Of a stretch of 64,000 nucleotides of DNA, positions 808 to 50,750 are shown piece by piece; the first letter of the stretch is position 1, and each line of letters starts with the position of its first letter. Both the position numbers and the translations under genes were made by a program. Source of the stretch: Saccostrea cucullata (lineage: Eukaryota); contig NW_026930899.1 in the NCBI RefSeq assembly GCF_032062105.1, positions 1 through 64,000 on the forward strand, in the 5' to 3' direction. The notes beneath the pieces were generated by a model, which worked only from the letters and a program-made list of their open reading frames with translations, was not told the DNA's origin and did not search any database.

Positions 808-2493
808 ATGTCGTCTGGAAATAATGAACCCTGCAGATTGCGGTAGGTATGTTTCATCTAGTATTTCAGCATAAATGTCCATTGCAAAGTTGAGGCTTAC
901 TGTTGATGTTTGTATCTTATTTTATCACTAATTTTTAGTTTAGATGAGAAAGAATGTTGTGCTAATTATTATTGGAGCGACAAGGAGAACGATTGTTTGC
1001 GTAAGTTTAATCATTTGTTTATAACCTTATTGTATGTAATATGATTCTTAAATGTAAGAGGGTAAAGGAGAGGATAACGAATAGAGATCGATCTAAAAGT
1101 TGTCTTTTAAACAATACCATTGTAAATAAGACTTTAAATATAGATCAAAAGAAATGTCAGACGTGGGGTCAGGTGCCTAAGAGGAGTAAGCAATCCCTTT
1201 TGACCGGTAACACCTGTCGTGCGCCATATAAATTGATCAGAGAGATGAATTATTCCTTAGTAAAACTTAATAGAGGAACATGACCTTCATTGACATAAAA
1301 CTTGTCAGTCAAAATGCGTCGCATTCATCAAGATGTATTTCCAACAAACGTCAATTACAGTTCATAGAATTTTTATTTTTAAAATGCTGATTAAGAAGAG
1401 AATAACATTTTTCAGCATGTGAACTTGGATTCTTTGGTGTCAACTGCGATCAACCTTGTCCTTACGGCCAATATGGAAAACTATGTGGGAAACCGTGTAA
1501 ATGTGCAACTGACGAATACTGTGATAGAGTATCGGGATGTGTAACTAATGGTATAACAAATTTTATTTAAATTATCTGTAATAGTAATCACAGAATTTCT
1601 TTAGCAATCTGCTTTCTAAAATAATTAAGAGTATGATAAGATATGATTTTTTATATAAAAAAAGAAAGAACTGTTTGACAAAACTAATTTGAATCATCTA
1701 TGTTTTTTTCCCTTCACACCCAGGAACAACAGTACAAACCTCAACGTACATATTTCATTCTACATCTGTTCCTTCATCAAAACTAGAGAGTACAACTTCA
1801 ACAACGGGATGGACAAAAACGGAATCAACTATAGAGATAGCTGTTAGAGAGTCTACCCTAATACCGACTGGACCAATAAAGGAAGAGATAAATAACAATA
1901 TCGTAGTAATATTAATGGGTGCAGTAATAGCTTTTCTTTTTCTTATAATACTTTTGGCAATTGTTAAGAAATTATGTTCCGCACGTTCAAAGAAAAAATA
2001 TATAAAAAAGGAAAATATATTAGAATTAAATAAGGAAGGTAATGAAATAGAAGTATATCATGAAATAAACATGGATGAAATGTTGGCTAATCAGATAGAA
2101 TTGCCAGATAATCGTTACAACAGAATAATGGACGATGTAGTGCGACCCAAATATTTGCAAATAGGATCCAAAATAGAAAAGGAAACAAAACAAACATATA
2201 ATGAAATTGACAAGGAAAATTCAACTTCAACCGGAAATAATGGAGATTATTTAGAACCGGAGTCAAGTGGGCGAGTGAATGCATATATAGAAGTTATAGA
2301 ACCTTTGATACATAACTCTAACTCTTTAAATAGTGATCAAGATGGTGGAAGCTCCTCAAACAAGTCTGACCGGTCTTATCAGGATACAGGGACTCTAGCA
2401 CAGGGTGACATGTCATGTCCCAACGAAATCAATGATCCAAAATCTCACGAATCGAAGAATAATGAATATCTAGATGTTGTTAATGAGTTATAG
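808..2493 (+). CDS. G1: EGF-like (MEGF10/CED-1/Nimrod-like) single-pass receptor, long ITAM-bearing tail
   Basis: Exons 808-842 (MSSGNNEPCRL), 939-1000 (ECCANYY..DC), 1416-1550 (CELGFFGVNCDQPCPYGQYGKLCGKPCKCATDEYCDRVSGC), 1724-2493 (S/T stalk, TM IVVILMGAVIAFLFLIILLAIV, tail ending EYLDVVNEL). All introns are GT-AG with compatible phases 2,1,1. The first exon is the least certain. Confidence 0.85.
1140..1370 (-). mobile_element. Penelope-like element 3' end fragment (G1 intron)
   Basis: GGGGTCAGGTGCCTAAGAGGAGTAAGCAATCCC...GACCGGTAACACC is a diverged match to the 3' region of the copy at 24553-25268. Confidence 0.6.
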
Positions 2494-5118: not shown

Positions 5119-6797
5119 ATTTTCGAGCTACAAAATTTTCAGGGTTCTTTTTCGCTTGTCAATTTTTTTTTAAAATGTACGTTATCTAGATTCTTTTTCT
5201 ATGTAGTTGAATTCTTTTTCTACCCCCCCCCCCTTCAAACTCGATGCTACGTCCGTGTCATGTGTAAATATAACTTACATTTATAACTGTGTATTAATTC
5301 AACATATGTAGAAACCATCTGATATATACACAATACAAAAAAATCCATGATTTTTTTAGATAGCGTTGAGGCTTCAAGAAGGGGGGGGGGGCTTACAAAA
5401 TAAATACATGTACCTCTTTTAAATGAAATAGTGCGAATATAATTAATTAGTCAAACTGTATTACATTTGTTTCGATCAACACATCAACAAAAATTAATAG
5501 TCATATCAAACATTTTATTTAACGAAATATATATATTACAGTGGTATATAATTTTTCCAGCTGTCGTTAACGGTCCTGACATACTAGTAATCAGTCTTTC
5601 GAATTCTTCCTACATCTTTAAATACTCATTCAGGTCTGATACGCCGATTTCGTCGAGCCAGCATCAACATGGACGCAGCTATTTCTACTTAAGATAGACT
5701 AAAGATATGTCCAAAGCTGTCGTAACTTTATGATAAATCTTAGGAACTTTCTTAAGTTACGATACTTTCGAAAACCCCACTTAGTCTTAAGAATTGTCGT
5801 AAGTATATCTTAAGACATTTCTTAGTCATAAGATAGCTTCGTAAACATGCCTGCAGGCTTTTTGATATCATTGACAGCTGTTTTTTCAATAAAGATAGAA
5901 CGAACTCGTAAATTTACTTAGCTTTTCATTGGTCATTTGCAAAATTTTGTTATAACACATTCTGATTGCACATACAAGTACTCTGAAGTCGGCATCAATA
6001 AGGTGCTGATTGACAATATCTATGTGGTTTTTGGAGAACAAGTCTTCCAACAATCTACTGGAATCCTCATGGGTACTCATTGCGCTCTGTTATTAGCAGA
6101 CCTATTTTTGTATTTATATGAAGCAGAATTTGTGCAAAATCTTATGATGAAGAAGAAAACACTTGCTGAGATCTTCAACTCGACATTTATATATATCGAT
6201 AACGTACTGTCAATTAACAATGGTAATTTTTATTCTTGTGTCGATACAATATATCCTGGTGAGCTTGAAATAAAAGATACAACAAAGTCTGACACATATG
6301 TTTCATATTTGGATATTTTACTTGAAAAAAGACGATAACGGTATAATATTTAAAAAAATATTGAAATATATTAAAGGATTGCAAGACTCCCATTTGTCCC
6401 TGGCGATTTTTTAAGTGGAAAAGGAGTATAATTATAAGAGTTGGTCACTCTGTATAATGAATTAACTTATTTTTATTTATATACAATTGTGACCGTTTAA
6501 TTATATATAATTTTTATTTCGCGTACCCAATTGTATGAAAGTGACTCGTATGTGAGGAGACAGGAAAATATCTCTACAATGATATGTCCTTAAAGCAACT
6601 TTTCACTAATAGATATTTTCCCTATTTTTAACAAAAAAAAACTGTTTTTGAACTTACAAATTAAAAAAAACGAATCAATTTTGCCGTATACGTAATCAAA
6701 TTTAAAAAATAGTTGGAATTTCTTATCATGACATGTTTACATAAATTTATGTTGCATACATATGTAGAGTTTTCGTCTTCATTTTCTTCAATTTGTC

Positions 6798-7606
6798 ATG
6801 AGCTTTAGCGATTCCAAATGGATTTATTTCTTAGCGATTCTCGGGTTTTGCAAGTTAGAGACTGAAGAAATGTTATCAAAAACGTACCCACAAAAGAGGT
6901 GTGTTGCCAATTACTTTTTGGACTTTGACAATATCTGTAAAGGTTAGTAAAAATTTAATTGAAAAATATTTAATTTACATCCTTACATTAATTTATGTAA
7001 AACATCTGACACGGCAGACCCATGCTAGCAGTTAAGTTTCTAAATGGAAAAGTATCTTAACATTTTCTAATGCATTTTAGCTGCAAGACAGATCGATAGC
7101 TTTAATCAAGATCACACAACATGTCTCAAATAAGTTATTAAATTCAATGATATGCTAAGGGTAATGTATTACAATTGACTGAAATTTGGAATTGCAATAG
7201 TTACATTTCCATTACACCAGTTTACATTTTACTGAATAAGAAAAACAGTTTTATTGTTTATCACACAGAGAAGAATCTAAATTAATTAGATATGGATGAA
7301 ACATATGGAAATAACGAACAGTTTTCAAGATCAAAAGTCCATAAAAGAATACAAAATAGGAACAGAGCAAACACGGACCTCCAAAACATCAGAGGTGGGA
7401 TCAGGTGCCATGGAGGAGTGAGCATATCCTGCCAGTGGCTGATAGGAACTGGTGTACCAAGAAATTGAGCATACTTTGCCGCCGATCGGTAACACTCGCC
7501 GTATGTTCCTTGTCATGATCGGGAAATAACGGAAAAATTCGTTTTCAATTCAGTGTATAAATAATGGACTAAGAATTAATATGAAAAACGTCGGTCAGCA
7601 TTTGAC

Positions 7607-7648
<42 letters not shown>

Positions 7649-10600
7649 TATTTATAGAAGGTAACCCGATTGGTGCAAGCACTAGTCTTCCTCTGGGCCC
7701 TCTTTATAACACATATACAATGTATATACACAATAAATACAAATCACAATAAGGAGACAATAAAAAAATGGACAGTACATGCATGTTACCAAATAAATAA
7801 ATAAAAAAAATAAAACATAAACATTTCAGCATAGAGAGAGAGAGAGAAAAAAAAAAGAAAAATCACGTAGAACTATTGCGTTTCACAAGCAAAAAATTTT
7901 CAACACTTTTTTGTAAATATTGTAAGGGATTGGGAATTCCTGATTCTTATTGGTAGCTCATTCCAGATATTAACTCTTGGATATGGTAAAGAATTTTTAA
8001 ATAAGTTAGTTTTATATTTTGGTAATCGCAGTTCGGAGTTTGTTTCTGAGCGTAACGTGTATGATCCAGAGCTTTGAAATTCAAAAAGATTATGCATATA
8101 ATCCGGAGACATACCATTAAATATTTTGAACATTAGAATGCTTTTCTGTAAATATAAAAGTTCATAAACCGTTAACCAGCCTAAAGTGTTAAATAAAGGC
8201 ATGGAAGGTGTATCATATTTTTCATTTAAAATAATCCTAGCCGCTCGTTTTTGTAATCTGTAGACTATCCATGTGCGTTTGAGGACAGTTGCCCCAAATG
8301 GACAGACAATATAAAATTGATGGTAGAATAAAAGCATTATAAAATAGTTTTCTAGTGTGCACTGGAAGAAACTTTTTAATTTTTCGTAAAGTGAATATTT
8401 TATATGTAAGAGTTTTGCAAAGTGCATCTACATGACAAGTATATTGTAGATTATGATCAATGTGAATGCCTAATAATTTGTGCATTTCTACATTTTCAAG
8501 AGTATGTCCGGAAAGTTGTAAATGAAAATTAACATTTTCTAATTTAGATTTCTTTTGTTGTGTTCCCATTAACATACACTTTGTTTTATCAGTATTTATA
8601 ATCATCTGATTTTGTTGGCACCATTTTTGTAGTTGATTGAGTTCATGATTTAGAGTTGTTTCAATATGTGAAATATTATTACCATGAAAATGCATTGTAG
8701 TGTCATCAGCAAACATATCAATATTACAATGTTCAACAGACAATGGTAAATCATTAATATACAATAGAAACAACAAAGGACCTAAAATAGAGCCCTGTGG
8801 CACACCTGCTGTGACTGGCACTGATTCAGATGTATACGCACCAATTTTAACACTTTGCGTTCGATCATATAAGTATGATTGAAACCATTTAATTGATATT
8901 GGATCGAAATGATAGCATTTAAGTTTTCTAATTAGTATATCGTGATTAACAAGATCAAATGCTTTGCTAAAATCTAAATAAGTAATGCCAACAAAATTTC
9001 CTTGATCTATTGCATGCAACCAATTATCGGTTAGTTTTGTGAGAGCTGTCTGGCATGAGTGAAATTCTCTAAATCCAGATTGTGCTTTCATTAGTAAATC
9101 AAAGTGAGAAGTAAAAATACGTATATTTTCTGCTACATGCTTCTCTAAAATTTTCGACATAGTTGGTAAAATTGAGATTGGGCGATAGTTTCCTGGGTCT
9201 GATTTATTGCCCTTTTTGAACAGGGGAGTTACTTTTGCGACTTTTAACTGTGAAGGAAAAGATCCTTTGATTATGCTAGAATTTATTAGGTGTGTTAGTG
9301 GTTTGGATATTACACTGGCTGAAAGTTTAAGCAATCTAGGTCCAAGAAAGTCTATGCCAGCAGATTTGTTTACATCTAGTCTTTTTAACATTTCAGATAC
9401 TTTTTCTTCATTAATCAAGGGAATTTTAAAAAAGTCTTGATCTCCGAGTTTCGTCTCCGTGTATCTTTTCAATTTGTCTGACTCAAATGTAGTAGACGAA
9501 AGATTATTCAACAATTTTTTCGGAATTTGGGCAAAATGTTCATTAAAGGCATTTGCAATATCCTGTAAATTATCAAGATCTAAGCCGTTATATATTATAT
9601 TGGAAGGAGACAAGTTTTTGTCTGATTTTGAGGCCAGCTGATTTAAGTGACCCCACATTTCCTTTGAAGTAGAACTATTTTCAATTACTTCCTTATAATA
9701 TGTAGATTTTGCATTATTTATTAAAGATGTCACTTTGTTCCTCCAAAATCTAAAATTATCCATGTCTCCCTGTTTATGATATTGATCTCGTAAATTCCTA
9801 GCATTATTTATTTCTGGAGTTAACCATTTAGTGCGGAATTCAGATTTCACACGCTTAGTTTTTACTTTTGCATGCTTATTGATTACAGCATTGAAAATAT
9901 CATAAAAACAGTTTAAAATGTCATTAGGGTCATGCAGTAGAATTAATTCATCAAAATTTGCATTGTTTAAATCAAGCAAAAAATCTGTTTCATTAAAATT
10001 TTTGAAGTCACGATATTGTATTTCAGTATGTTTGCCTTTGCGTTGCATGCTGTTAGATCTTCGTGTGGCACATATAGGATAATGATCAGACATCGCTACA
10101 GGGGGTACTGCTATTTCACATATGTTAGCAGGGTGCGTAGTGTAGAAATGGTCAATAAGAGTTTTAGAGCTATTAGTAATTCTTGTTGGGGTGTTAATTA
10201 ATTGTGTTAGTCCAAAATCTACAATTGCAGAAGACCAACTCCGCGGGGGTTCTTTGAGCATATCAATATTGAGATCACCTGCAATAATGAGAAATTGTAT
10301 TTACTGACATGGTCATTTTATTGACCATAGAACTTACATATACGAAAAATGACTTTAAACGAGACTGCTGATACTCTTGATTCGTCAACTTTTTTTGTAG
10401 GTAATTTACCTTGTTGGATTTGCAGACAAGGGTAAATTCAATGATATTCATTTTAAGGTTATTTTTTTCTGAAACCCCTCTTTCAATTTTTGTAAACAAC
10501 ATTTCGAAGTTTTATAGTTATGTAATGCAACAGCAAGCACAAGTTGTAGGAAAGGGAATGTTTTACAAGGAGAAAGTAATGTGAATATATGCAATTGCAT

Positions 10601-12302
10601 ATATACTTCATATTTCCTAATAGAGTGCCCTCCGGGAATATTTGGAATGAATTGCAGCCAGAAATGTCCAAGTAGCACGTATGGGCAATTTTGTGCAAAA
10701 TTGTGTCAATGCCCCCCTGACCGATGCGACAAAAGACACGGTTGTGAAGGTACTCACATTTACACTTTTAACAATTTTTTTATATGTGCTCTTAGTGGGA
10801 CCTTATGATAAGATATCGTAAAAAGAATAAAAAATAGCTCATAAAGATATTATCTTATGTTTTATTTATAAGCAAATACAAATAGAACTACATTTGTACT
10901 CAGAAAATAATCATATTGGAATATTTTGCAGACATAGTTCTGGAGAAGGAAGAAAACTCAGGGCTGTGTGTTTCGTATGTATTGACTTAGATGTTCAATT
11001 GTTTTTAAATTGAAACTGTTGTTTTAACTAAAACAATGAACAAAGTGTGACAAAACACTTATACAAAAATGGCATACAAATAAGATTTGGTTAATAAAAA
11101 TACTGCTTAAAATTCAACATGATAAACATTTCCATTGAAGTTTGTGTCCGTGTTGTTATACCACCAAATTGCTTTGAAAAAAACACTGCAATAAATATTA
11201 TTCATAATAAAAAAGAGGAAATAAATTACATGTTTTAATTATATATTAATAATGAAATAGTAATATAAAGTGTATTATAGAAATATGTAGAAATAATTGG
11301 GTTTACTTAGAATTTATCCCACATCTTAAAACAAACCTTTACTTATATAGTCGAATATTAATTTTCTCTTGTAGGAAAGATGGTGAGCTTGAGTGCTGCT
11401 TGAGCTTTTACAAGACAAATAACACATGCGCAGGTAGTTGTCAATAAAATCCAAGTATAAATAATTTAAATTTTATCTATTTGTTATGATTGCATTGAAA
11501 AAGTGTTCTTAGAAATTCCTCCCTGTTTTGCAACCAAAACATTCTGTATTTTATTTTCTTTAGCCTGTCCAGCTGGGACGTATAACAATAACTGCTCCGA
11601 TCCGTGTCCGCCCGGATACTATGGTGAATTATGTTCTAAAGTATGTGACTGTTCAGAGGCTTCATGTGATAAAGTACATGGGTGTTCTCAAAAAGGTACA
11701 AATAGTTTTCGCTTTAGAATAATTTACAAATACAAAATGTAGGAAAATAAATATATTTTGTTTTCTAAAGTCTGCCCAGCTGGGACGTATAACAATAACT
11801 GCTCTGATCCGTGTCCGCCTGGATACTATGGAGAATTATGTTCTAAAGTATGTGACTGTCCAGAAGATTCGTGTGATAAAGTACATGGGTGCTCACAACA
11901 AGGTACAAGTAGTTTTCACTTGCGATTAATTTACAAATACAATATTTAGAAAAAAACCCAAGCAGATACAATGTTGATATGAGCATTTGATTTACTGCAT
12001 TAATATTTGTGAAACTCCTATTTTTATAGAAATAATTAAATCAGTTACAGATAAATTAATATATCGAAACGTCATGTTTATAAAAAGATATGAAGTGAAA
12101 TTATATTTCTTTGATTGTTTTAGTCTCCGGGACAGAGGTTCCGTTGAATATGATCATCTTTGCTGGAAGTATCACCCTTGTGTTCCTCTTAATAATGACA
12201 ATACTTTTCATAAAGTTTGCTAAACTTCAACGTCTCAGAAGACACGCACCTCTTTCCAACGATTTGACAGATGTGGCAGTTTATTCAGAAGTGAAGGGTT
12301 AG
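6798..12302 (+). CDS. G2: multi-EGF single-pass receptor with signal peptide and short single-tyrosine tail
   Basis: Exons 6798-6942 (MSFSDSKWIYFLAILGFCKL...RCVANYFLDFDNICK), 10624-10749 (EGF), 10932-10974 (..NSGLCV), 11375-11433 (ELECCLSFY..TCA), 11564-11695 and 11771-11902 (duplicated EGF), 12124-12302 (TM, tail ..DVAVYSEVKG*). Phases 1,1,2,1,1,1 are all compatible. Confidence 0.8.
7290..10390 (-). mobile_element. Penelope-like 3' fragment interrupted by a LINE
   Basis: 7290-7607 and 10285-10390 are contiguous in the uninterrupted copy (CAGCATTTGAC.CAAT|GATAAATTGTATTTGCTGAC near 24795-24830). Confidence 0.8.
7608..10285 (-). mobile_element. CR1/L2-group LINE, 5'-truncated in the APE endonuclease
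   Basis: ORF 8237-10261 has APE motifs (AGDLN just upstream, TLIDH, SDHYPI) and RT motifs (YRPISILP, QSGFR, LDFSKAFD, GVPQGSILGPLLF, FADD). One frameshift near 8265 leads into ORF 7900-8427 (RLQKRAARII..WNELP). An (ATT)n tail lies at 7608-7644. Confidence 0.95.
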
Positions 12303-14465
12303 ATCTGAGGTGTGAACAGACAAAAACAATTTATTGTAATCATTTTCTGAATAATTCTGTGATATAGTGTAACAAGTAGTTTGATTATGTTTTATACAGA
12401 TGTACATATATGTCACCATTGAACAAAGAGAAATCAAAAGTGAAATAAAACAAAATGCGAGGAGACGTTTTAAACTAAAAAAGCTAAACACTTTTTTCAT
12501 GTTCCTGCATGTTGCACCCTCAAGATGAAGCTCTGTTTATCAAACACGTTAAAGACCTTACGTGCATCTACAACTTTCTATCGATTCTTAGGGAAAAAAG
12601 TAAAACTGCTGTGCATGAGAAACGTCAGACGTGTATACATGTATTGTGTGATAGCATCTTCAAGACGTGTTGAGATTTAAATATGGATTCTAAAAGACTC
12701 CAAAACACTTCTTAAAATGATATACATGTATATAAAAAATATTTTCCAACATTAGTAACATCAAAACATATTTTTTATACAACCATTTCTCACTATCCAT
12801 GGCATTATCAATTAAGATGCAGACTCTTTGATATTTTAAACAATTGCCTTCCAATACAATAAGAACTCTTTTTTATGAAATAACAAAAAAAAAAAGCAAA
12901 AATGCAAGACACATTTTTACGTACTATGTTTTATATCAACCGTGATGCTTTTGTTGACATATTAATCATATATATATAGTATATAAGATTTGACAGGGGA
13001 GTGTTCCGTCTACTTGTTAATACACGTGACTCACGGCAATCAACAGGGGATGCTAACTTCTGATTGGCTCCTGATACAGCCTCTGGCATTTCATGAGGTC
13101 CCTGTTTATGCCCTGTTTACAGTTTTGTATTATTGATTTCTTAAATCGATCAATAATCGCAAAAATCGATATCTTCACCCTTTTCATTTTTTCTTCTTAT
13201 TTCCCAATGTTTGTTTAGCAGATAAATTAAATGCACGCTTATCATGAGCATATTTGCTCTTGCTCTTACAAAGCTGCAAATGTGCTTCGGGTTCTTATGA
13301 ACTGAATTGTTCATCGGTTTCAATATATAAGAGAACATAATGCAAAAATAATGCAAAAAGTAAAAGTTTTCAATCGTCAGATTGTCGTGTTAATGATTTT
13401 TGAATTTATAAGAGAGAAAAAAACCTTGTCTTTGTATATTAATTGTTCTTTAAAGACCAAGAGAGACCTTCCTGAAAGGGAATGTGAATTGTTTTCTGTA
13501 TGAAGTCAGGTGGTATTGTTTCATACAATCTACTTACTTTTAAGTGACAAATGGGAGTGGGAGTGACAAATTGGAGTGTCTTCTAATGAGTACTTGACTA
13601 ACTGTACTCACCTTTATTTTGCTTTGATCAACAAGTCTTCATCTCGCAGTTTATATTTCAAAACAATAGAAATAAAAAAAAACAATAGGGATAAGAGAAA
13701 AGTCCCTGATAATCATGCAGAATTTCCGTTCTTCTGTCATTGGAAATGCTATATGACGGTATAATCGATATCCGACTTTTGACGAAGAGGGAAATCATAT
13801 TGAACATCATGCCACAGAACTAAATTTATTACCAGACATTGCACAGGCAGTTTTTGAACAAATACTGATAGATAAAATATGACTATAACAAACAACACTT
13901 AAACTCAAAAGTCCATTGAAGTCATACACACAGGGAGCAAAGCTAACAACAAAGGTGCCAAACAAGGGTAAATTACCCATTTCAACCGCTTAAACCTACC
14001 GTGTTCTTCTTGACCTGCAAAGGAAAACGGAGAAATATTAACTGATATGAAAAAAGCAATACATTTTTTTCGGATTTAAGAAATCAAAACTATGATTATG
14101 TCCTTTTTTTAATTTAAAGAAGGGCCAAAGGGTTAATTGCCTATGTCACCTTGACTTTAATTTTTTCAGAGTTATGCATAATTATGTATTTTTAATTGTC
14201 TTCAAAAGGTTCAAATATTGAAAGGTAGCTTAAAAATCATTTTAAAAAGTTAAATCTTTTCGAAATTGTAGGAAAAAAATTCAGTCATTAAATACATTTT
14301 TATCAATATAACATTCATGCTATAATGTTTTTATGCCAGTCTGTATTAGATTTCATATAACTTTCCTGTATTTTTTAATGTATTCCTGAATGTTTACATC
14401 CGTCTCCAAAAAGAGTTTTTTTAAATGATAGTGAGAAGTTTCCTGCTTATTTCTATGTATGAAAA

Positions 14466-16933
14466 ATGAAAAATATCATAAAATGGGTTTACTGTTTTCT
14501 GTTGAACGATAAATACTTGACCTTAAGTACGAATGAAAGCAGTGGAACAACAAGCTGTCCTGTAAATTACTTTTTGGGCGTTCACAAAAATTGCACTGGT
14601 AAGATTTATGTAGTCTATTCTGTTTTCTTTCTTTTAGCCACATTTTAATTAATCATCTTTTTCGAAGAAAAAAGTAAAAAAAAAAATCTTTTAATGTTTA
14701 TTTGCAAGAAAAGTACGTCTTTTCTAAATAAATGAAGAATATTTTGAATAGAGATGAAATAAAATATTTGTACTTAGAGTGTCCTGCAGGGAGCTTTGGC
14801 CACAATTGTAGCGCCCCATGTCCACCTGAATCGTATGGTCGACTGTGTGCAGAGGATTGTAGTGAATGTCCCGCAGATGAGTGCGATAAGGTCACAGGAT
14901 GTCAAGGTATACGATACGTTATATTGAGAGAGAGAGAGAGAGAGAGAGTGTTTGTTTCAAAATTATATATCTGAATATTATAAAGGAATGGTTTACTATC
15001 AATATTTATATATAAATTGCTTAAATACTTTACAGTACATTATGTAATGAAGGATATGAGTCCATAAAACAATACAAAATAGGAGCAGAGCAAACACGGA
15101 CCTTCAAAACATCAGAGATGGGATCATTGCCATGGAGGAATGAGCATTTTACTCGCAATCATTCCTTTATGACCGTAATAGAAAATTAATAAAGAATTAC
15201 CAAAACTTCTGAACAACTTTTACTAAGGCTTTTAATATTTTACATGTTTCCCCCAGAAATCATTTTTCTAATCTTTTGACCCAGACCGTGGAGTTTAACC
15301 CACATTTAAATATTTTAACTTAGGCATAGTTTGTCATAGGTTAGTGTTTGGACTTTAATATTTCACAGGTAGAAGTTTTGTGACAAGTCTTTTCTTTGGG
15401 TAAAACGTTTTCATTCTTGTTCTTCAAGTTTGAATTGGATTTGAGAAAATTATATATTTGTTAAAAGCTGCCATACGGGGACTTCAGTTTTCACAGAGCT
15501 AGAGAATACATTTTTTAAACAGAAGACAATTATTGCTTTCCATATATATTAAAAATGTAACAGAGGATATCCTTTTAAAACAGAAGGAAATTATTTCTGC
15601 TATTTAAAGACTAAACAAAATATACTAGTTACTTTTTAATAAATTTATATAAAAACAATATTGATTAAAGGTAGATAAGGAAATAAATAAAATTATAAAA
15701 AGTACAAGAAAAGTATCTCTAGGATATTTGACACTCAAGTTAAAACAAAGCAGGTTAAAATTGAGAGGTAGTGAAATCGAGAAAAGAAAAAGGAAAACAT
15801 TAAATGTAAAAGATACTAGCCAGTATAATACCTAGCATTCATAATCATTTTATTTATTGATGATAAGTTGCTTACAATTACGGTAAAAATAAATTGTCAT
15901 TCAATGTCTCAGAGGGACTGTTACACATGGAAAGTAAATATCATTAAAGATATACTTTATATAGAATATGTTCTTAAAGAGGCAAGCTATTGGAAAACAA
16001 ATTGATGAAAAAAGGATATCAACTGCCTTGATTGAAGTCATCATCCCTAAGGCTCTATGGTAAATACAATGATCTGGCCGGCAAAGTAAAATATGCCATA
16101 ATTTGTAATGTCACCTAAACTTTTTTAAGAAGAATTAAAAAAAAATAATTAAGCGGTTTGACCTCTTTTAGAGACAAGTCCAGCCCATTGCAATTATTTA
16201 CGTAAACTTGAATCTCTACTACCTCTTGATATTTACATTTTATTTTTACTAATTATAGAATTTTTTGTTCTTGTGGGGAGAATTTCTTCCTTTGTTAAAA
16301 AACTCATAGCTTGACCCGAGCTACAAATGTATATATCCACTCGATATAATTTAAATTATTTTGAATACATTCACATAGAATTAAAAACTCTTTTAAACAA
16401 CTTTGTCTTTTGTGGCTAAGTGGTTCTTTAAAGATCCCAGATGTAAAAATTACTGACTTTATCAGGTATATCATGATAGAATAAAATATAAACGAATGTG
16501 TGATATTTTGGTACATCGTGAGGCATTAAAGTATTACACATTAACTTAAAATTAAATTTTGTCTATATTGATAAATTACATTTTAGTCACAAGTACAGTC
16601 ATTGATGGACAACATGCAACTACTGCCTCTATTCAAACTGAAACAAATGGGACAAATGATTTAATAGAATCAACCTCAGATCGAGCCCCCGTTTCGGATT
16701 CTTCAGGAAGCTCCGATAAAGGAACGGTTTCCGAGTTAATCATTATCAATGGTAGTGTCATCATTTTCTTCCTCGTGATACTCATTATTGTCATGTCTGT
16801 CAGAAAGATCTTTGAGTTCAGGTACTGGAAGAGATGTGTCGCAGCGAGGAACACTCAAACTGCCATAGATGAAACAGTATATGCGGAAGTTTATGAATTG
16901 ACTGAAATAAAAAATGGAGGAATCAAAAAATGA
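14466..16933 (+). CDS. G3: single-EGF receptor, short tail with ITSM-like TVYAEV
   Basis: Exons 14466-14598 (MKNIIKWVYCFLL..SCPVNYFLGVHKNCT), 14778-14906 (CPAGSFGHNC..DKVTGCQ), 16587-16933 (stalk, TM LIIINGSVIIFFLVILIIVMSV, tail ..DETVYAEVYEL..). Phases 1,1. Confidence 0.85.
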
Positions 16934-19290: not shown

Positions 19291-20314
19291 CTTGGTTTAA
19301 CATTTACTTGAACCTTGCTATATGTTTTATGTTTATAGAGAGTTTTATGAAGTTTCTGAATCAATTAAAGATATGATTACAATATATATTTCGATTGTTT
19401 GGACTATAAGATTTAAAACTGACATATGATGTTGAAGAATACCTGCCTTAAAAAGAGAACTGTGAGTATAAGTTTGATTATTACTTGTAGAATCAAATCC
19501 AGGTTCTTCTACACTACAATTTATATTATGATCCTTACAAATGAAGACAATTAAAGGTTTTTTTTTATCCTCCTAGAACTTAATTTCAAATAATCAAATT
19601 ATTTTATTACTATTATTTTTTAAAGTAAATTAATAATTGATAATATGACTCTATGACTCTATTAAATATGCATAAACAGTTTAATCACATTAATTCAATA
19701 CTATAGTACGTTCTAAAATATTTTCTGTGTAACTTTTACTTTTCTTTAAAGAAAATAGCTTTCTTCTTTTGAAAGAATTAAAAGTAGAATGATTTAAAAA
19801 TTATCAATGTTCATGTATAAATAAAACGTTTTTATTTCAATAAGTCATACCATAAAGAATACGTATGCTTCGTGACAATACACGAAGAAATACATTCTAA
19901 GAGGAATGGCCGAAGTTATTATACTTTTGACAACAAAGAATACGTGTAACTTGTAGCCTTATTCCTATTATTTTTAGTAAAACAATTTAGGGCTAGAATT
20001 GTATTTAAATGAAACTGTAGCCATGCGGTGAGTATTTGACTTAATTTTTTTGCATTATAAACCAAGGTAAAGGAAAAAAAAACCCACCTTTTTTAAAATT
20101 CTCTTCTGGATTGTAATACGGAATTTTATTTAAGAAATGTATGTCTTTCAAACATCATGACATAAACACAACAATTTTATTCAGTTGTGCTAACATATAT
20201 GCATATATATATATTTGTATTTCTGAATATATTCATAAAATCTACATCCGCCTTTATGGAGAGTTATGTCAAACAAAAAAAAAGATGTTTCCTGTTGGAT
20301 TCTATGTAGGAAAA

Positions 20315-20735
20315 ATGAAAACACATATCATAAAATGGATTTGTTGTTTTCTGTTAAACGATAAATATTTGACGTTAACAGACACAGTCAATGAGGCAAA
20401 GGGTTGTCCTGTAAATTACTTTTTCGACGTGGACAAGAAAAATTGTACAGGTAATAATTATTACATCTCGTGGTTTGTTTAATCTTTGACGAAAACAGTA
20501 AGAAAACATTTGATTTTTTCTTCTCATTTTTTGCAAAGAAAGGTCATCTTTCAAAGTAACTGTAGAATATCGCATAATGATTTTATAAAGAATGTTTCTA
20601 CCTAGAGTGTCCTCCAGGGAGCTTTGGCCAAAATTGTAGCGCCCCGTGTCCACCTAAATCGTATGGTCGACTGTGTGCAGAGGATTGTAGTGAATGCCCC
20701 CAAGATGAGTGCGATAAGGTCACAGGATGTCAAGG

Positions 20736-20800
<65 letters not shown>

Positions 20801-22664
20801 TAAGTTGCTTTTATTTTGAAATACAGACTTTGCTGTATGTAACAAGCAATCATTGACTGATGGGTTTTATTCAATTTTCTTTCGGCAATATTTTTCCATT
20901 TCTCCAAATAGGATGTTTACTTTTCATGAATTGTACAGACATACTTCATATATTATTTTTAGTTGAATATTATACAACATATATCCGACAGTTTTTGTTT
21001 AAAATGTCAATTGAATAAGAGGGTGTCAAAATAAAAGGGTCAAAACATATTGACTAGACGGGTTTCACACTCGAAATAAAAGGAAGTATGAACACACTTT
21101 TAATAATATTATTAAATAATGGAAACATTCCCTTCAAAGAAATACAAAAAGGAAGATATCCAATAGTTTTGACAATGTTAAACAATATTTAATTCATAAA
21201 ATTTGATATAACTTACAAATTGTAATTATTTTTTTAAAGAAAATGCTTTCAATGAATCAGGGAAATCGAATGCACTTTAGGAATTTGAAAATTCTAAAGA
21301 AAATATGAATTTATTCGTCCTGAGATAATATCACCTTAAATATCCTTTTAAAAGTAACGCTACATAAATAATAACAAACATATACGTTATAAAATGATGT
21401 AAAGATGCTGGGAAATCAAAAAAAAGTAAAGATAAAGGATGGGTCCATGACTTTATACTTTTGACAGGAAATATATTTCCAGTAGAAAGTTTTTACACTT
21501 GGATACTCAGGCATCATAATATACCCAAAATAATTTTGAGCTGTTCTAAAAATAGAAGCAAACAGATAATAGATTTTCATCAAAACCCCATCCCCAGGAA
21601 AACAAATATACAAAACAAAAAAGACAAGCAAAAGAAAAAATAACAAATTAACCACAAAAACAGATGTGGGAATCAAATTAACCATTTCTAACTGCTAATC
21701 AACATGCTTAAACAATGGTGTGTGAATTCAAAATTTCGAAATCAAAAAAAAAAATATCCCGAAACCCATCACCTTTGATTGGAGAATAGTTGTCTACGTT
21801 TATATCGATTTTGCTATATTGTATTTTGGTCTGTTTTTGGTGTATGTATATATTTATTTTTCAGGGACATCTACAAAACCTGAATTTTACCGATCGTCTA
21901 CAACAATATCATCAGCAGTAACATCAGTGTTTGAGATATCATCATCAATACTACCAACATCCTTGTCGACAGACAGATTAACCACAATTTTAAAGAGTAA
22001 ACCATCACAACCATCAACTGTAGAAACAAAGGACGAGCCTAGCATTTTAACTATAATTCTGATAGTGGTGGGTTTTGCTGCTCTTATCATAATAATATTG
22101 ATTGCTATTCTTTTTATTGTTGTGAGACGACTATGGGTTCTACATACCAAAAGAACATATCATAGAACCGAAAATGAATCAAAACACTTAAAGGAAGGAA
22201 ACGAATCGGGGGAATATCAGGAAATTGAAATAGATAGAAATCTGGTTATCCAAAGCGAAGTATCAGGACACCGCTATAACACAATAATGCAGGAAATGGA
22301 TCAACCTATTGGTACCAAGTATGAAGAGCCTCGATCCAAAATAAATCAGGAAATGAAAACACTGTATTCTCATTACAGGGAAATAGACGAAGAAAACTCT
22401 TCCTCGACAGGGAATAATGGTGGATATATAGAGCCAGAATCAAGTGGGCAAATACATGCCTATCTTGAAGTTATAGAACCTATAGTACATAGTTCTGATT
22501 CAGCTTATAGCTACAATGATGGCGTTAGCTTAAAATGTCATAGGTCCGACCAAAATTCTGATCATATCGAAGAAAACGATGATAACTATTTGAGTGCATC
22601 CAATGCTATTGAAATACATGAAGCAAAAGACAATGATTATTTAGACGTTGTCCACAATAAGTGA
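20315..22664 (+). CDS. G4: single-EGF receptor, G3-like ectodomain plus G1-like long tail
   Basis: Exons 20315-20450 (MKTHIIKWICCFLL..GCPVNYFFDVDKKNCT; alternative ATG at 20285), 20606-20734 (EGF), 21865-22664 (S/T stalk, TM ILTIILIVVGFAALIIIILIAILFIVV, tail ending DYLDVVHNK). Confidence 0.87.
20739..20798. repeat. (GA)n microsatellite just after the G4 EGF exon; counterpart at ~14926-14948 after the G3 EGF exon
   Basis: Direct inspection. Confidence 0.95.
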
Positions 22665-47138: not shown

Positions 47139-47965
47139 TACAGTAGAGTTGAAGACCAAAACATTTTTCTTTTCTTCTCACGGTGTTGTTTTTCAAACGC
47201 GAAAGACAAAATACCCTTTGCTATGGATAATAAAGGTATTTTGAGTTTGATTTTTTTCATTCCATTTGCAGGCAATGCTCTCGTGAAGTGTGGTTTATAC
47301 AGAGTAATCACCTCAAATAATTATTCTACATTGGGTATATTAATAAGTCAAAAGAAGTAAAATTTAAGTTTATCCTTTCTTTCAAAATGAACCAACATTC
47401 TAGTTTCTGTACAGTTTACTAGTGAACAGAGAGTTATGATAAGGTGTAATAGTGCAGTGATATACATGTAGTAGTCATTCTAAATTTTCCTCATCTTCAA
47501 ACAGGTAATTAAATTCGTCAAACTTATGAGATGTACTTTTTTTGTAGTTCACAAGAAAAACACTTTCAAAATTAATAATTATACGTTCATGCAAGTTAAT
47601 TTGAGTAATATTTTAAAACTACGATCAACGTATTTTTTATTTTCCTTCTATTAAAATTTGATAAATCAAATATTCATTGATCAATATTAGTGTATTGAAC
47701 AGTGAATTATAAGCAGGGAGTTACATTTTACGGTTAAAATAAAATAGTTTTTGATAAATGTTAACATATAATAGTATATTATTTGATCAAAGTAAAACCT
47801 GTCTCAAAATAAATATATTTTGTTCGTTTACAGACCTAATGTCTTACTTGAATGGAGTATAAATATTAACACTTTGATAAATGAATGTTTGTAGAAAATA
47901 ATTAATTTTGATTTTTTAATTATAGTATATGAAATCCAGTTGACACGATGTTGAAGGGAAATTAG

Positions 47966-48603
47966 AAAATATGCTAAATCAGACCAGTGAAACAGAAGTC
48001 TTTCTTTGGCATAATACAACATATTCAGTGGGGGACACAACGGAAAATCTCCAGAATTTAACCTCCACGAGTTTGGACAGCGACGTGATATTAAAATGTG
48101 ACAACTTACGAGCTGCTGTCTACATACTGAGTGCTGTTTTATTTTGCCTTCTGTTAACAGTAATGATTTTCTTCTACAAATCAATTAAAAGAAATATCAA
48201 ATCATACTCCTTTGATCGAAATTCTATTGATTCCATTCAAGGGAAAATACAAAAGAGAAAGTATGCTCCAAAAGAAAATGTGTCTATCAACAGAAAAAAA
48301 CATTTTGGAAGAGTTGTCCTTCCTGTTTCCACTCATATACAAATGGTTGAACATGTAGTTCCTAACTTTACAGAAGGTTCCAATAGAAACATCAGACCAA
48401 GGAACAGCAAAGAAACGCATCTGTATATGGACGTTCTGCCTGATACTCAGAGTACTTTTGATGAGATCAAGTATTCTGTCTGTTTAAATGAGGATGAAAA
48501 TTATGAGAAAGGACTTACCGATTCGGAATATTACAATGTGTCTGATGTCGGTGAAAGGAATACGAAAGTACAATCCGTGATATATCTTAATGAAAATGGA
48601 TAG
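47966..48603 (+). CDS. G9: orphan stalk/TM/tyrosine-tail exon (partial gene or pseudogene)
   Basis: ORF 47971-48603 has a TM (AAVYILSAVLFCLLLTVMIFFY) and a tail with HLYMDV, SEYYNV and VIYLNE. There is an in-frame TGA at 47941 and only a weak acceptor at 47965. No intact EGF exon was found between G8 and here. Confidence 0.55.
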
Positions 48604-49700: not shown

Positions 49701-50075
49701 TCTTTTATTATGAAAAATGTTTTAACTGAACTGAAAAATTTCCTGAAGCGTTTAAAATTTGTACTTTTGAATGAAAATTTATAAAGAAAATGCAGCATTT
49801 TGGAAACATCTCGGATTAAAAACCTTCAAACAAGCACCGATTTATTAATAAAAATGTCTACTACGGGGTACCTTGAACGTGTTTGCTAGGAACTGCAAAT
49901 CTGCTAGAATTTTTCTAGTATAATATAGTACATGTAAAATATTTACTTAAAACGGAAGAACATCTTTATTTTAATAAATTATCGTCTTTTCGGGAAGTTT
50001 CCTTTAATTTCCCATTTTTCAGATTAAATTTCATATGAATTTACTTTAATTTTAAATATAAGAATATAGGTGGAT

Positions 50076-50508
50076 ATGGATTACACTGTGATTAAACTGT
50101 TTGCTCTCTGGATGAGCATTTATACACAAGTAAGAGTATATTGTGATAACACTCATCCTGACGAACATGGAGAGTAAGTAGAAGTTTGCTTTTCAAATGT
50201 TTATAATGATTTGAAGTGTATCATTGACTTGGATAGATGTGTTTATCGTATTTATTTATTACGATTAAAACTATATATATTCTTTTCTCAGGTTTAACTG
50301 CTGTTTGCACTTCTTTTTATATGATGGAGAATGTTGAGGTACGTAATAGGAATAGCATGTAGTATAAGGACTTAAAATATCAAGTCGTCATTTTGTTTGA
50401 AATATTGTTATATAAAGCCTTTTTTCAGAGTGTCCGTTCGGTTTTTTTTTCGGACAAAATTGTGCTCTTCGGTGTTACCATCCTTACTATGGTCGACTAT
50501 GTCACTCT
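50076..50508 (+). pseudogene. G10: pseudogenised duplicate of G11
   Basis: Exons 50076-50173 (signal peptide), 50292-50338 (NCCLHFFLYDGEC*, TGA at 50335 where G11 has CGA), 50429-50508 (EGF truncated at a MITE). Exon 1 and 2 sizes (98 and 47 nt) are identical to G11. Confidence 0.85.
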
Positions 50509-50750
50509 CTTGAGTATTCATGCGTCATTTTAAAATTTGTTTTAGTGGCAATTTTTAGTTGGATATGGAGTTGATACTTTATATGGACGATTTGTATAAA
50601 TAAAGGGCACTGATATATGAATAGATCAAATAGCAACAGCAAGATCTTCATGATTAAAAAGAGACTGTTACTGTAATGTGTTAGCAACCTTTTGTTGAAG
50701 CAACCATAGAATCGTTGTCGGTACATCCCATGACGTCATGAATACTCAAG
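50509..50750. mobile_element. MITE truncating the G10 EGF exon
   Basis: TIRs CTTGAGTATTCATG(A)CGTCA / TGACGTCATGAATACTCAAG. Confidence 0.75.

Follow-up and report, generated by a model that had tools for sequence, protein, structure and literature searches.

A young head on an old tail: conflicting head and tail histories suggest exon exchange among predicted EGF-like receptor genes of an oyster

In a tandem gene cluster of the oyster Saccostrea cucullata, the gene that we call G4 joins a head resembling that of its neighbour G3 to a tail resembling that of G1, which raises the question of how the two parts came together and which of them is the younger. The window, by which we mean the whole stretch of DNA analysed, is the first 64 kb of contig C13036 and holds about eleven paralogues or fragments, all on the + strand. 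The usual gene plan is a small N module followed by an 8-Cys EGF-like exon and one terminal exon. The N module consists either of a GxC exon plus a CC exon or of a lone exon whose single Cys stands at the CC position, and the terminal exon encodes a Ser/Thr stalk, a membrane segment and a tail. In G1 to G8 the EGF exon is flanked on both sides by phase-1 introns, so that any head would be in frame with any tail, and the EGF-like Cys pattern is invariant across 11 proteins. RefSeq lists G4 as LOC134230465 (Saccostrea cucullata, 354 residues) and names G3 "scavenger receptor class F member 1-like" (202 residues); the exons of the RefSeq models P0001, P0003 and P0014 agree with those read here. 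A second haplotype, contig C20947, matches positions 6022-14804 at 97.5%. The features of G4 and of the three genes compared with it are as follows.

20195..20800 (edges approximate), + strand: G4 copy of the head block, with 5' flank, exon 1, intron 1, exon 2 and GA tract
20315..20450, + strand: G4 exon 1, with a weak signal-peptide-like start, the single-Cys N module and a phase-1 donor
20606..20734, + strand: G4 exon 2, 8-Cys EGF-like with C-x2-C spacing; likely conversion tract
20739..20798, + strand: (GA)n tract behind the G4 EGF donor, at the 3' end of the block shared with G3
21865..22664, + strand: G4 terminal exon, with Ser/Thr stalk, one transmembrane segment and a long Tyr-rich tail of the G1/G4 type
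22374..22496, + strand: conserved 41-residue tail core of G4 (G1 counterpart 2197-2319)
808..2493, + strand: G1, exons 808-842, 939-1000 (CC), 1416-1550 (EGF, C-x-C-x5-C) and 1724-2493 (long tail); RefSeq P0014
6798..12302, + strand: G2, single-Cys exon 6798-6942, EGF 10624-10749, GxC 10932-10974, CC 11375-11433
6798..12302, + strand: G2 (continued), EGF 11564-11695 and 11771-11902, short-tail exon 12124-12302
14345..14950 (edges approximate), + strand: G3 head block, exon 1 14466-14598, EGF exon 14778-14906, GA tract 14926-14947
16587..16933, + strand: G3 terminal exon, with stalk, transmembrane segment and short tail of the G2/G3 type; an O. edulis counterpart exists

G2, whose splicing was read from exon phases, carries the single-Cys module and then a full module of GxC, CC and two EGF exons directly before its short tail. 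These last two EGF exons (11547-11954) are 88.6% alike over 201 bases, flanks included, and are a recent tandem duplicate; the G2-like copies on contig C3168 have one full EGF exon in their place. On the minus strand of the first intron of G2 (7600-10290) lies an element with a reverse-transcriptase/endonuclease-like reading, identified by eye, which is present in C20947 and absent from the matching place of C3168. Further downstream, positions 47944-48603 hold a terminal-exon-like frame with a membrane segment and a Tyr-rich tail, upstream of which a pattern search found no head exons, and G10 and G11 form a duplicated pair (49892-50520 and 52483-56536). In G10 the CC motif is immediately followed by a stop and the EGF exon is broken; the first exon of G11 is clearly of the signal type.

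Evidence from sequencing runs came from 5 of 24 listed public runs. Contigs of runs X1 and X3, from two studies, skip G4 intron 1 (155 bases, GT..AG ends), one X3 contig runs through exons 1, 2 and 3, and the junction of exons 2 and 3 is also present in an X1 contig. The library type of X1 is not on record and X3 as RNA is a guess, the evidence being the clean splice itself; exon pieces in the contigs are mostly 90-99% like the window. The DNA run X2 covers 29 of the 30 bins across 20250-21990. Since the spliced contigs join the G4 head to the G4 tail, the combination is no assembly artefact and G4 is a real gene. The G3 EGF exon is likewise joined to the G3 tail in run X19, which is on record as RNA. 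Two other contigs were observed. One, from X3, combines a G4-like tail, at about 90% identity, with a head that shows a three-base gap. The other, of 636 bases and from X1, has a G3/G4-like EGF exon matching 20606-20730 and 14778-14907 with 11-15 differences and both flanks unmatched; this single contig is possibly a further head-tail combination in that animal.

The N module of G4 has two Cys only. The protein contains a single hydrophobic run, with a predicted helix from residue 149 (pLDDT 88-95 over 151-180), and G4 is thus predicted to have a single transmembrane helix, as a type I membrane receptor does. As to a cleaved signal peptide, crude hydropathy gives a best 10-residue mean of 2.4 in G4, 2.0 in G3, 3.2 in G11 and -0.5 in the G1 model. 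The mean pLDDT of the G4 fold model is 51, with 63-84 in the ectodomain, and a fold search with it gave no match at E 0.001; the tail is predicted to be disordered (pLDDT <50 from residue 195).

The head of G4 is closest to that of G3, and the next best EGF reaches at most 63% (29 matches). A block of about 600 bp is common to the two genes, from about 120 bases before the start codon to the GA tract (BLAST core in G4 20216-20775, at 73%), with DNA identity of 70% in the 5' flank, 79% in exon 1, 66% in intron 1 and 94.6% in the EGF exon (122/129 bases). Amino-acid identity is 83% over the head, 90% in the EGF and 76% in exon 1. On its 3' side the block stops at the GA tract, which follows closely on the EGF donor and lies within the phase-1 intron that separates the EGF exon from the terminal exon. 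The 64 kb contain three GA/TC tract sites, and two of them coincide with this edge of the block in G3 and in G4. We detected no DNA similarity between G3 and G4 in the rest of intron 2 (z -0.3) or in the terminal exons (z 0.3). The original prediction had assigned to G4 the single-Cys head type of G2 and G3. This is borne out for G3, but G2 has both head types, with its CC module next to the tail.

One further reading is that G3 and G4 are a whole-gene duplicate with fast-diverging tails, or that the assembly joined the G3 head to another tail. Near-identical EGF exons could confuse an assembler and the allelic contig C20947 ends inside the G3 EGF exon, but the G4 exons are joined in the spliced X1 and X3 contigs and the X2 DNA spans the region; as for a whole-gene duplicate, the terminal exons have no DNA similarity although intron 1 keeps its 66%, and the G3 tail has its own Ostrea counterpart. 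This reading is largely refuted and we regard it as very improbable.

Within the block, G3 and G4 differ at 7/129 bases of the EGF exon compared with 27/130 of exon 1 (Fisher p 0.0003; one post-hoc comparison), and at 2/28 compared with 11/24 synonymous sites (p 0.003). The dS values are 0.07 for the EGF exon and 0.70 for exon 1, next to about 1.7 for the G1/G4 tail. The EGF exon thus looks like a gene-conversion tract, a short region far more alike than its flanks, and was likely homogenised again by gene conversion at a later time, although strong constraint on this exon could mimic part of the signal. In run contigs, a G4-type EGF differs from G4 at 1/110, and a G3-type EGF from G3 at 4/88 and from G4 at 8/84; EGFs in the public runs still sort by gene, so the last homogenisation would predate the split from those animals.

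The original prediction had also aligned the tails of G4 and G1 without gaps, with many synonymous changes and a shared N(D/E)YLDVV end, and the coordinates of the G4 terminal exon and the peptides proved right. In the gap-free 41-residue core, 29/41 residues and 91/123 bases are identical, 12 of the 29 identical residues are encoded by different codons, and the tails end in NNEYLDVV in G1 and DNDYLDVV in G4. The terminal-exon DNA of the pair has a local score of 206 against 33.6 in 60 shuffles (z 38.8), and G1 is the closest tail to G4 in the window (about 43-44% amino acid, other window matches 28-32%). An O. edulis tail (P0002) is, however, 45% like G1 and 49% like G4, compared with 44% between G1 and G4, and synonymous sites are saturated between the tails of G1 and G4 (pS 0.68-0.70). 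They therefore appear to be old paralogues, as far apart as each is from the Ostrea tails, which argues that the head is the young piece. We rejected a recent transfer of the G1 tail to G4, given the saturated synonymous sites and the intron end (52%) and 3' flank (44%), both at noise. Heads and tails had been predicted to reassort in the phase-1 intron before the terminal exon; the 3' block edge does lie there, but a recent recombination of the G1 tail onto G4 does not fit these values.

Purifying selection on the tail, a further part of the prediction, is supported. The G1/G4 dN/dS of 0.26 (CI 0-0.43) is unreliable because of the synonymous saturation, and closer pairs were used for this reason: tail pN/pS is 0.22 (CI 0.11-0.41) for G1 and its C3168 copy and 0.40 (CI 0.25-0.68) for G6 and its C4971 copy, and the intervals for the stalk, the EGF and the short tail include 1 in the closer pairs. 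The uncorrected value for G4 and G1, at saturation, is 0.48. These ratios indicate purifying selection on the long cytoplasmic tails, the evidence for G4's own branch being the saturated G1 pair. In the long tails, tyrosines in acidic surroundings recur in a fixed order, eight or nine of them conserved, as would suit phosphotyrosine docking; the G3 tail has only the first tyrosine motif and one more tyrosine behind it.

Head and tail phylogenies are incongruent by AU tests, as had been predicted. The head protein tree (20 rows, 60 columns) places G3 with G4 at 96/94 (starred) and G1 with O. edulis LOC125680946 at 92/87; the head data reject a long-tail group without G3 (p-AU 0.012) and do not reject one with G3 (0.264). 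The tail protein tree, built on the membrane segment and first tyrosine motif (21 rows, 68 columns), unites G2, its C3168 copy, G3 and the Ostrea G3-like tail at 99/93 (starred), so that the predicted short G2/G3 tail type stands as one group, also in DNA (96/96, starred). The tail protein test of G3+G4 is borderline (p-AU 0.052), the G1/G4/Ostrea tail group has support of only 63/78, and the full-tail tree leaves the long-tail lineages G1, G4 and Ostrea unordered. In codon alignments of S. cucullata sequences only (tails 11 rows, EGF exons 14, exon-1 modules 12), tail DNA rejects G3+G4 (p-AU 0.0097) and EGF DNA rejects G1+G4 (p-AU 0.036). Exon-1 DNA does not reject G1+G4 (p-AU 0.22), and it groups the exon-1 modules of G2, G3 and G4 at 85/95. 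Each module offers just 40-68 columns, the tail trees bring long branches together, and EGF-only trees resolve little (1/19 branches starred). Rows were omitted for G9 (no head or first motif found), G10 (damaged), P0008, P0010, P0012 and P0013 (no head), isoforms, the second EGF of P0006, and loci L035-L044 except the C15468 gene.

Which gene received the foreign part? The best explanation, and in our view a just about probable one, is that G4 arose when an old G1-like gene had its own head overwritten by a copy of the G3 head. Mispairing or partial duplication in the tandem array would have effected the copying, and the EGF exon would then have been homogenised once more by gene conversion. 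The outcome would be two receptors with a similar outer module, one with a long multi-tyrosine tail (G4) and one with a short tail (G3). Consistent with G4 as the recipient, the single-Cys first exon and the short tail are both common to G2 and G3, and G4 lacks the short tail; the G4 EGF scores 138-154 against the three EGFs of G2 and at most 126 against the Ostrea long-tail genes; and CC heads occur in G1 and in 3 of the 4 Ostrea genes of the same tail type. Against it, the head data reject neither a grouping of G3/G4 with the first G2 module (p-AU 0.297) nor one with three Ostrea genes (0.256), and these same three Ostrea genes pair the G3/G4 EGF spacing with a G1/G4-type tail. In addition, O. 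edulis LOC125680946 has a single-Cys module, and its juxtamembrane tail is G4-like (29/59 compared with 17/58 for G1).

The last two of these points would suit the opposite direction, in which G4 is an intact old gene with single-Cys module, C-x2-C EGF and long tail, and G3 is the chimera, the head of G4 having been copied before a G2-type short-tail exon. We consider this possible but less likely. The Ostrea genes in question (O. edulis LOC130046444, LOC130046383 and LOC125680950) combine the C-x2-C EGF with the long tail, this spacing is missing in the three EGFs of G2, LOC125680946 carries its single-Cys module on a long tail, a CC module directly precedes the short tail of G2, and G1 adjoins G2/G3/G4, weakly (49/67), in the exon-1 DNA tree. 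However, the C-x2-C spacing is not diagnostic, since it also occurs in a subfamily with another tail (7/10 loci), and the single-Cys state is a poor lineage marker, since it recurs in LOC125680946 and in 2/10 further loci; we discarded both as lineage markers. Moreover, LOC125680946, whose model may lack its 5' end, has G1 as best match in both head modules and groups with it at 92/87, and the G4 EGF resembles the EGFs of G2 at least as much as those of the Ostrea trio.

It is also conceivable, though decidedly unlikely, that one ancestral head served both a long and a short terminal exon and that, after tandem duplication, each copy lost one tail with no recombinant being formed. Isoforms of O. 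edulis LOC130046444 (P0005, P0016) with a C-x2-C EGF do carry, behind a G4-type tail, a membrane segment and tail of the G3 type, but these may be a read-through model. Besides G3, no separate G3-tail protein of 111-354 residues was found (1/25 candidates), and leftovers of this kind do exist, as the decayed long tail on C3168 shows. On the other hand, G3 intron 2 holds no long-tail remnant and no short tail lies behind G4 (z <=2.6 in 6 comparisons), nor is there a tblastn tail match at E 0.05, though heads still align in the intron. Six spacer regions searched for residual tails or heads gave only four weak EGF matches (E 0.01-0.05), which we judged to be chance.

From the ages of the parts we infer three layers: the long tails split early, close to the time when Ostrea and Saccostrea diverged, the 600-bp head was copied later, and the EGF exon was homogenised recently.

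Signs of shuffling are seen elsewhere in the family as well. On contig C3168 (G000:C3168:1726-6819, L008), a G2-like copy has a stop in its membrane exon and continues into a G1-like intron, EGF exon and intact long tail. The G2/G1-like junction has a few shared bases and the G1-like EGF has lost one Cys; skipping of the membrane exon would give an in-frame product with G2 head and G1 tail. Compared with G2, the first exon of this copy is allele-like (pS 0.04) and its EGF is not (pS 0.26), so that it looks mosaic twice. Between two G2-like copies of the same contig (G000:C3168:8230-8868) lies a decayed G1-type terminal exon with stops and frameshifts. In O. edulis, the tails of P0002 and P0017 are identical at 47/48 positions of the core and at 26/59 of the membrane-proximal part, which likely reflects a second conversion, at the opposite end to that of G3/G4. 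Loci L035-L042 (contigs C12866, C6835, C8408, C12098 and C15468) form a multi-copy subfamily with a C-x2-C EGF and a long tail of its own, two copies of which have lost the second Cys of the CC motif. The S. echinata RefSeq model P0006 contains two complete head-membrane-tail units in one 738-residue chain, and is probably two neighbouring genes joined in one model.

Searches beyond the cluster point to an unnamed family. The best three ESM Atlas matches are Mollusca "hypothetical protein" clusters (score 0.94-0.95, 74-132 members); these are the real family of G4 and carry no attached function or Pfam family. Relatives among length-limited candidates numbered 2/712 for the G4 tail, 2/2 for the head and 1/25 for the G3 tail, and a profile search returned 12 proteins, 4 of them strong; the candidate and profile searches found no S. 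echinata or Magallana orthologue of G3 or G4. Pfam gave nothing over cut-off for any family in 6 proteins, and titles and abstract starts, in a literature without most subscription journals, named neither this cluster nor paired receptors of oysters.

By sequence, G3 and G4 are best described as members of a tandem family of miniature SCARF/MEGF10-like predicted receptors, shaped by ordinary shuffling and conversion. They resemble SCARF1, MEGF10, CED-1 and Draper in having one membrane segment, a tyrosine-bearing tail and, apparently, an 8-Cys EGF-like module. The RefSeq name of G3 points to SCARF1, and Atlas matches at 0.81-0.85, leads only, are MEGF10/Draper clusters. The family profile matches an EGF-domain chain (E 2e-8) and Tie2 (0.002), with no Pfam EGF match. 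Unlike those receptors, which have many EGF repeats, G1, G3 and G4 have one EGF-like exon and G2 three, and the oyster genes have a tiny N module. An N-terminal EMI domain and an NPxY tail motif are traits of the MEGF10/CED-1/Draper family; Pfam finds no EMI domain in 6/6 proteins, and none of the 12 tyrosines of the G4 tail stands in NPxY.

Paired receptors typically oppose an inhibitory ITIM tail to an ITAM or a charged membrane residue. G4 has several Y-x-x-I/V motifs and no clean ITIM or ITAM; G3 has one T-x-Y-x-x-V, missing in its Ostrea counterpart, and a mid-membrane region without a charged residue. Run X3 holds pieces of both terminal exons, at the level of the whole run and not of the cell. 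As in paired receptors, G3 and G4 would present near-identical outer domains on tails unrelated in DNA. The closest functional analogue would be Siglec-11/16 of primates, two distinct genes in which gene conversion maintains the likeness of the ligand-facing outer exons, and for which opposite signalling, a shared ligand and co-expression have been shown (PMC5701461). Those are Ig-type vertebrate lectins; the fold of G3 and G4 would be EGF-like, and their likeness to that pair is one of sequence pattern. The closest molluscan description is that of the Biomphalaria LG5R cluster: the paper reports scavenger-class-F-like single-pass membrane genes with many fragments and copy differences, MEGF10/SREC-like and Tie2-type EGF signatures, a link to parasite resistance, and authors who invoke unequal crossover and gene conversion (PMC13712769). 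The oyster profile likewise matches Tie2 EGF stretches, but the cytosolic parts of LG5R are mostly small in that account (PMC13712769).

Tandem receptor families are well known to exchange exons and to undergo conversion, and the recognition receptors of invertebrates are held to diversify in tandem clusters through gene conversion and unequal crossover (PMC13712769, section 32). Copying of the front of one of the two neighbours onto the other is likely, and would be an instance of this known route to new combinations in receptor clusters. Altogether, our data point to a real head-tail conflict and a constrained tail, with the head as the young part, and the cluster is a compact case that can be dated, with the edge of the block mapped and the ages falling into three layers. 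As a practical warning, RefSeq names and whole-protein trees mislead for these genes. A bolder view, which we think unlikely, is that G3 and G4 form an oyster paired-receptor system in which conversion keeps one EGF recognition module alike on a long multi-tyrosine and a short tail, the whole phase-1-bounded family being a set of combinable heads and tails through which recognition is rewired to signalling, much as in the Siglec-11/16 pair of primates. If G3 and G4 bind the same ligand but signal differently, they would make a testable paired-receptor system in a bivalve; otherwise, the cluster would reflect routine turnover in a large unnamed mollusc family.
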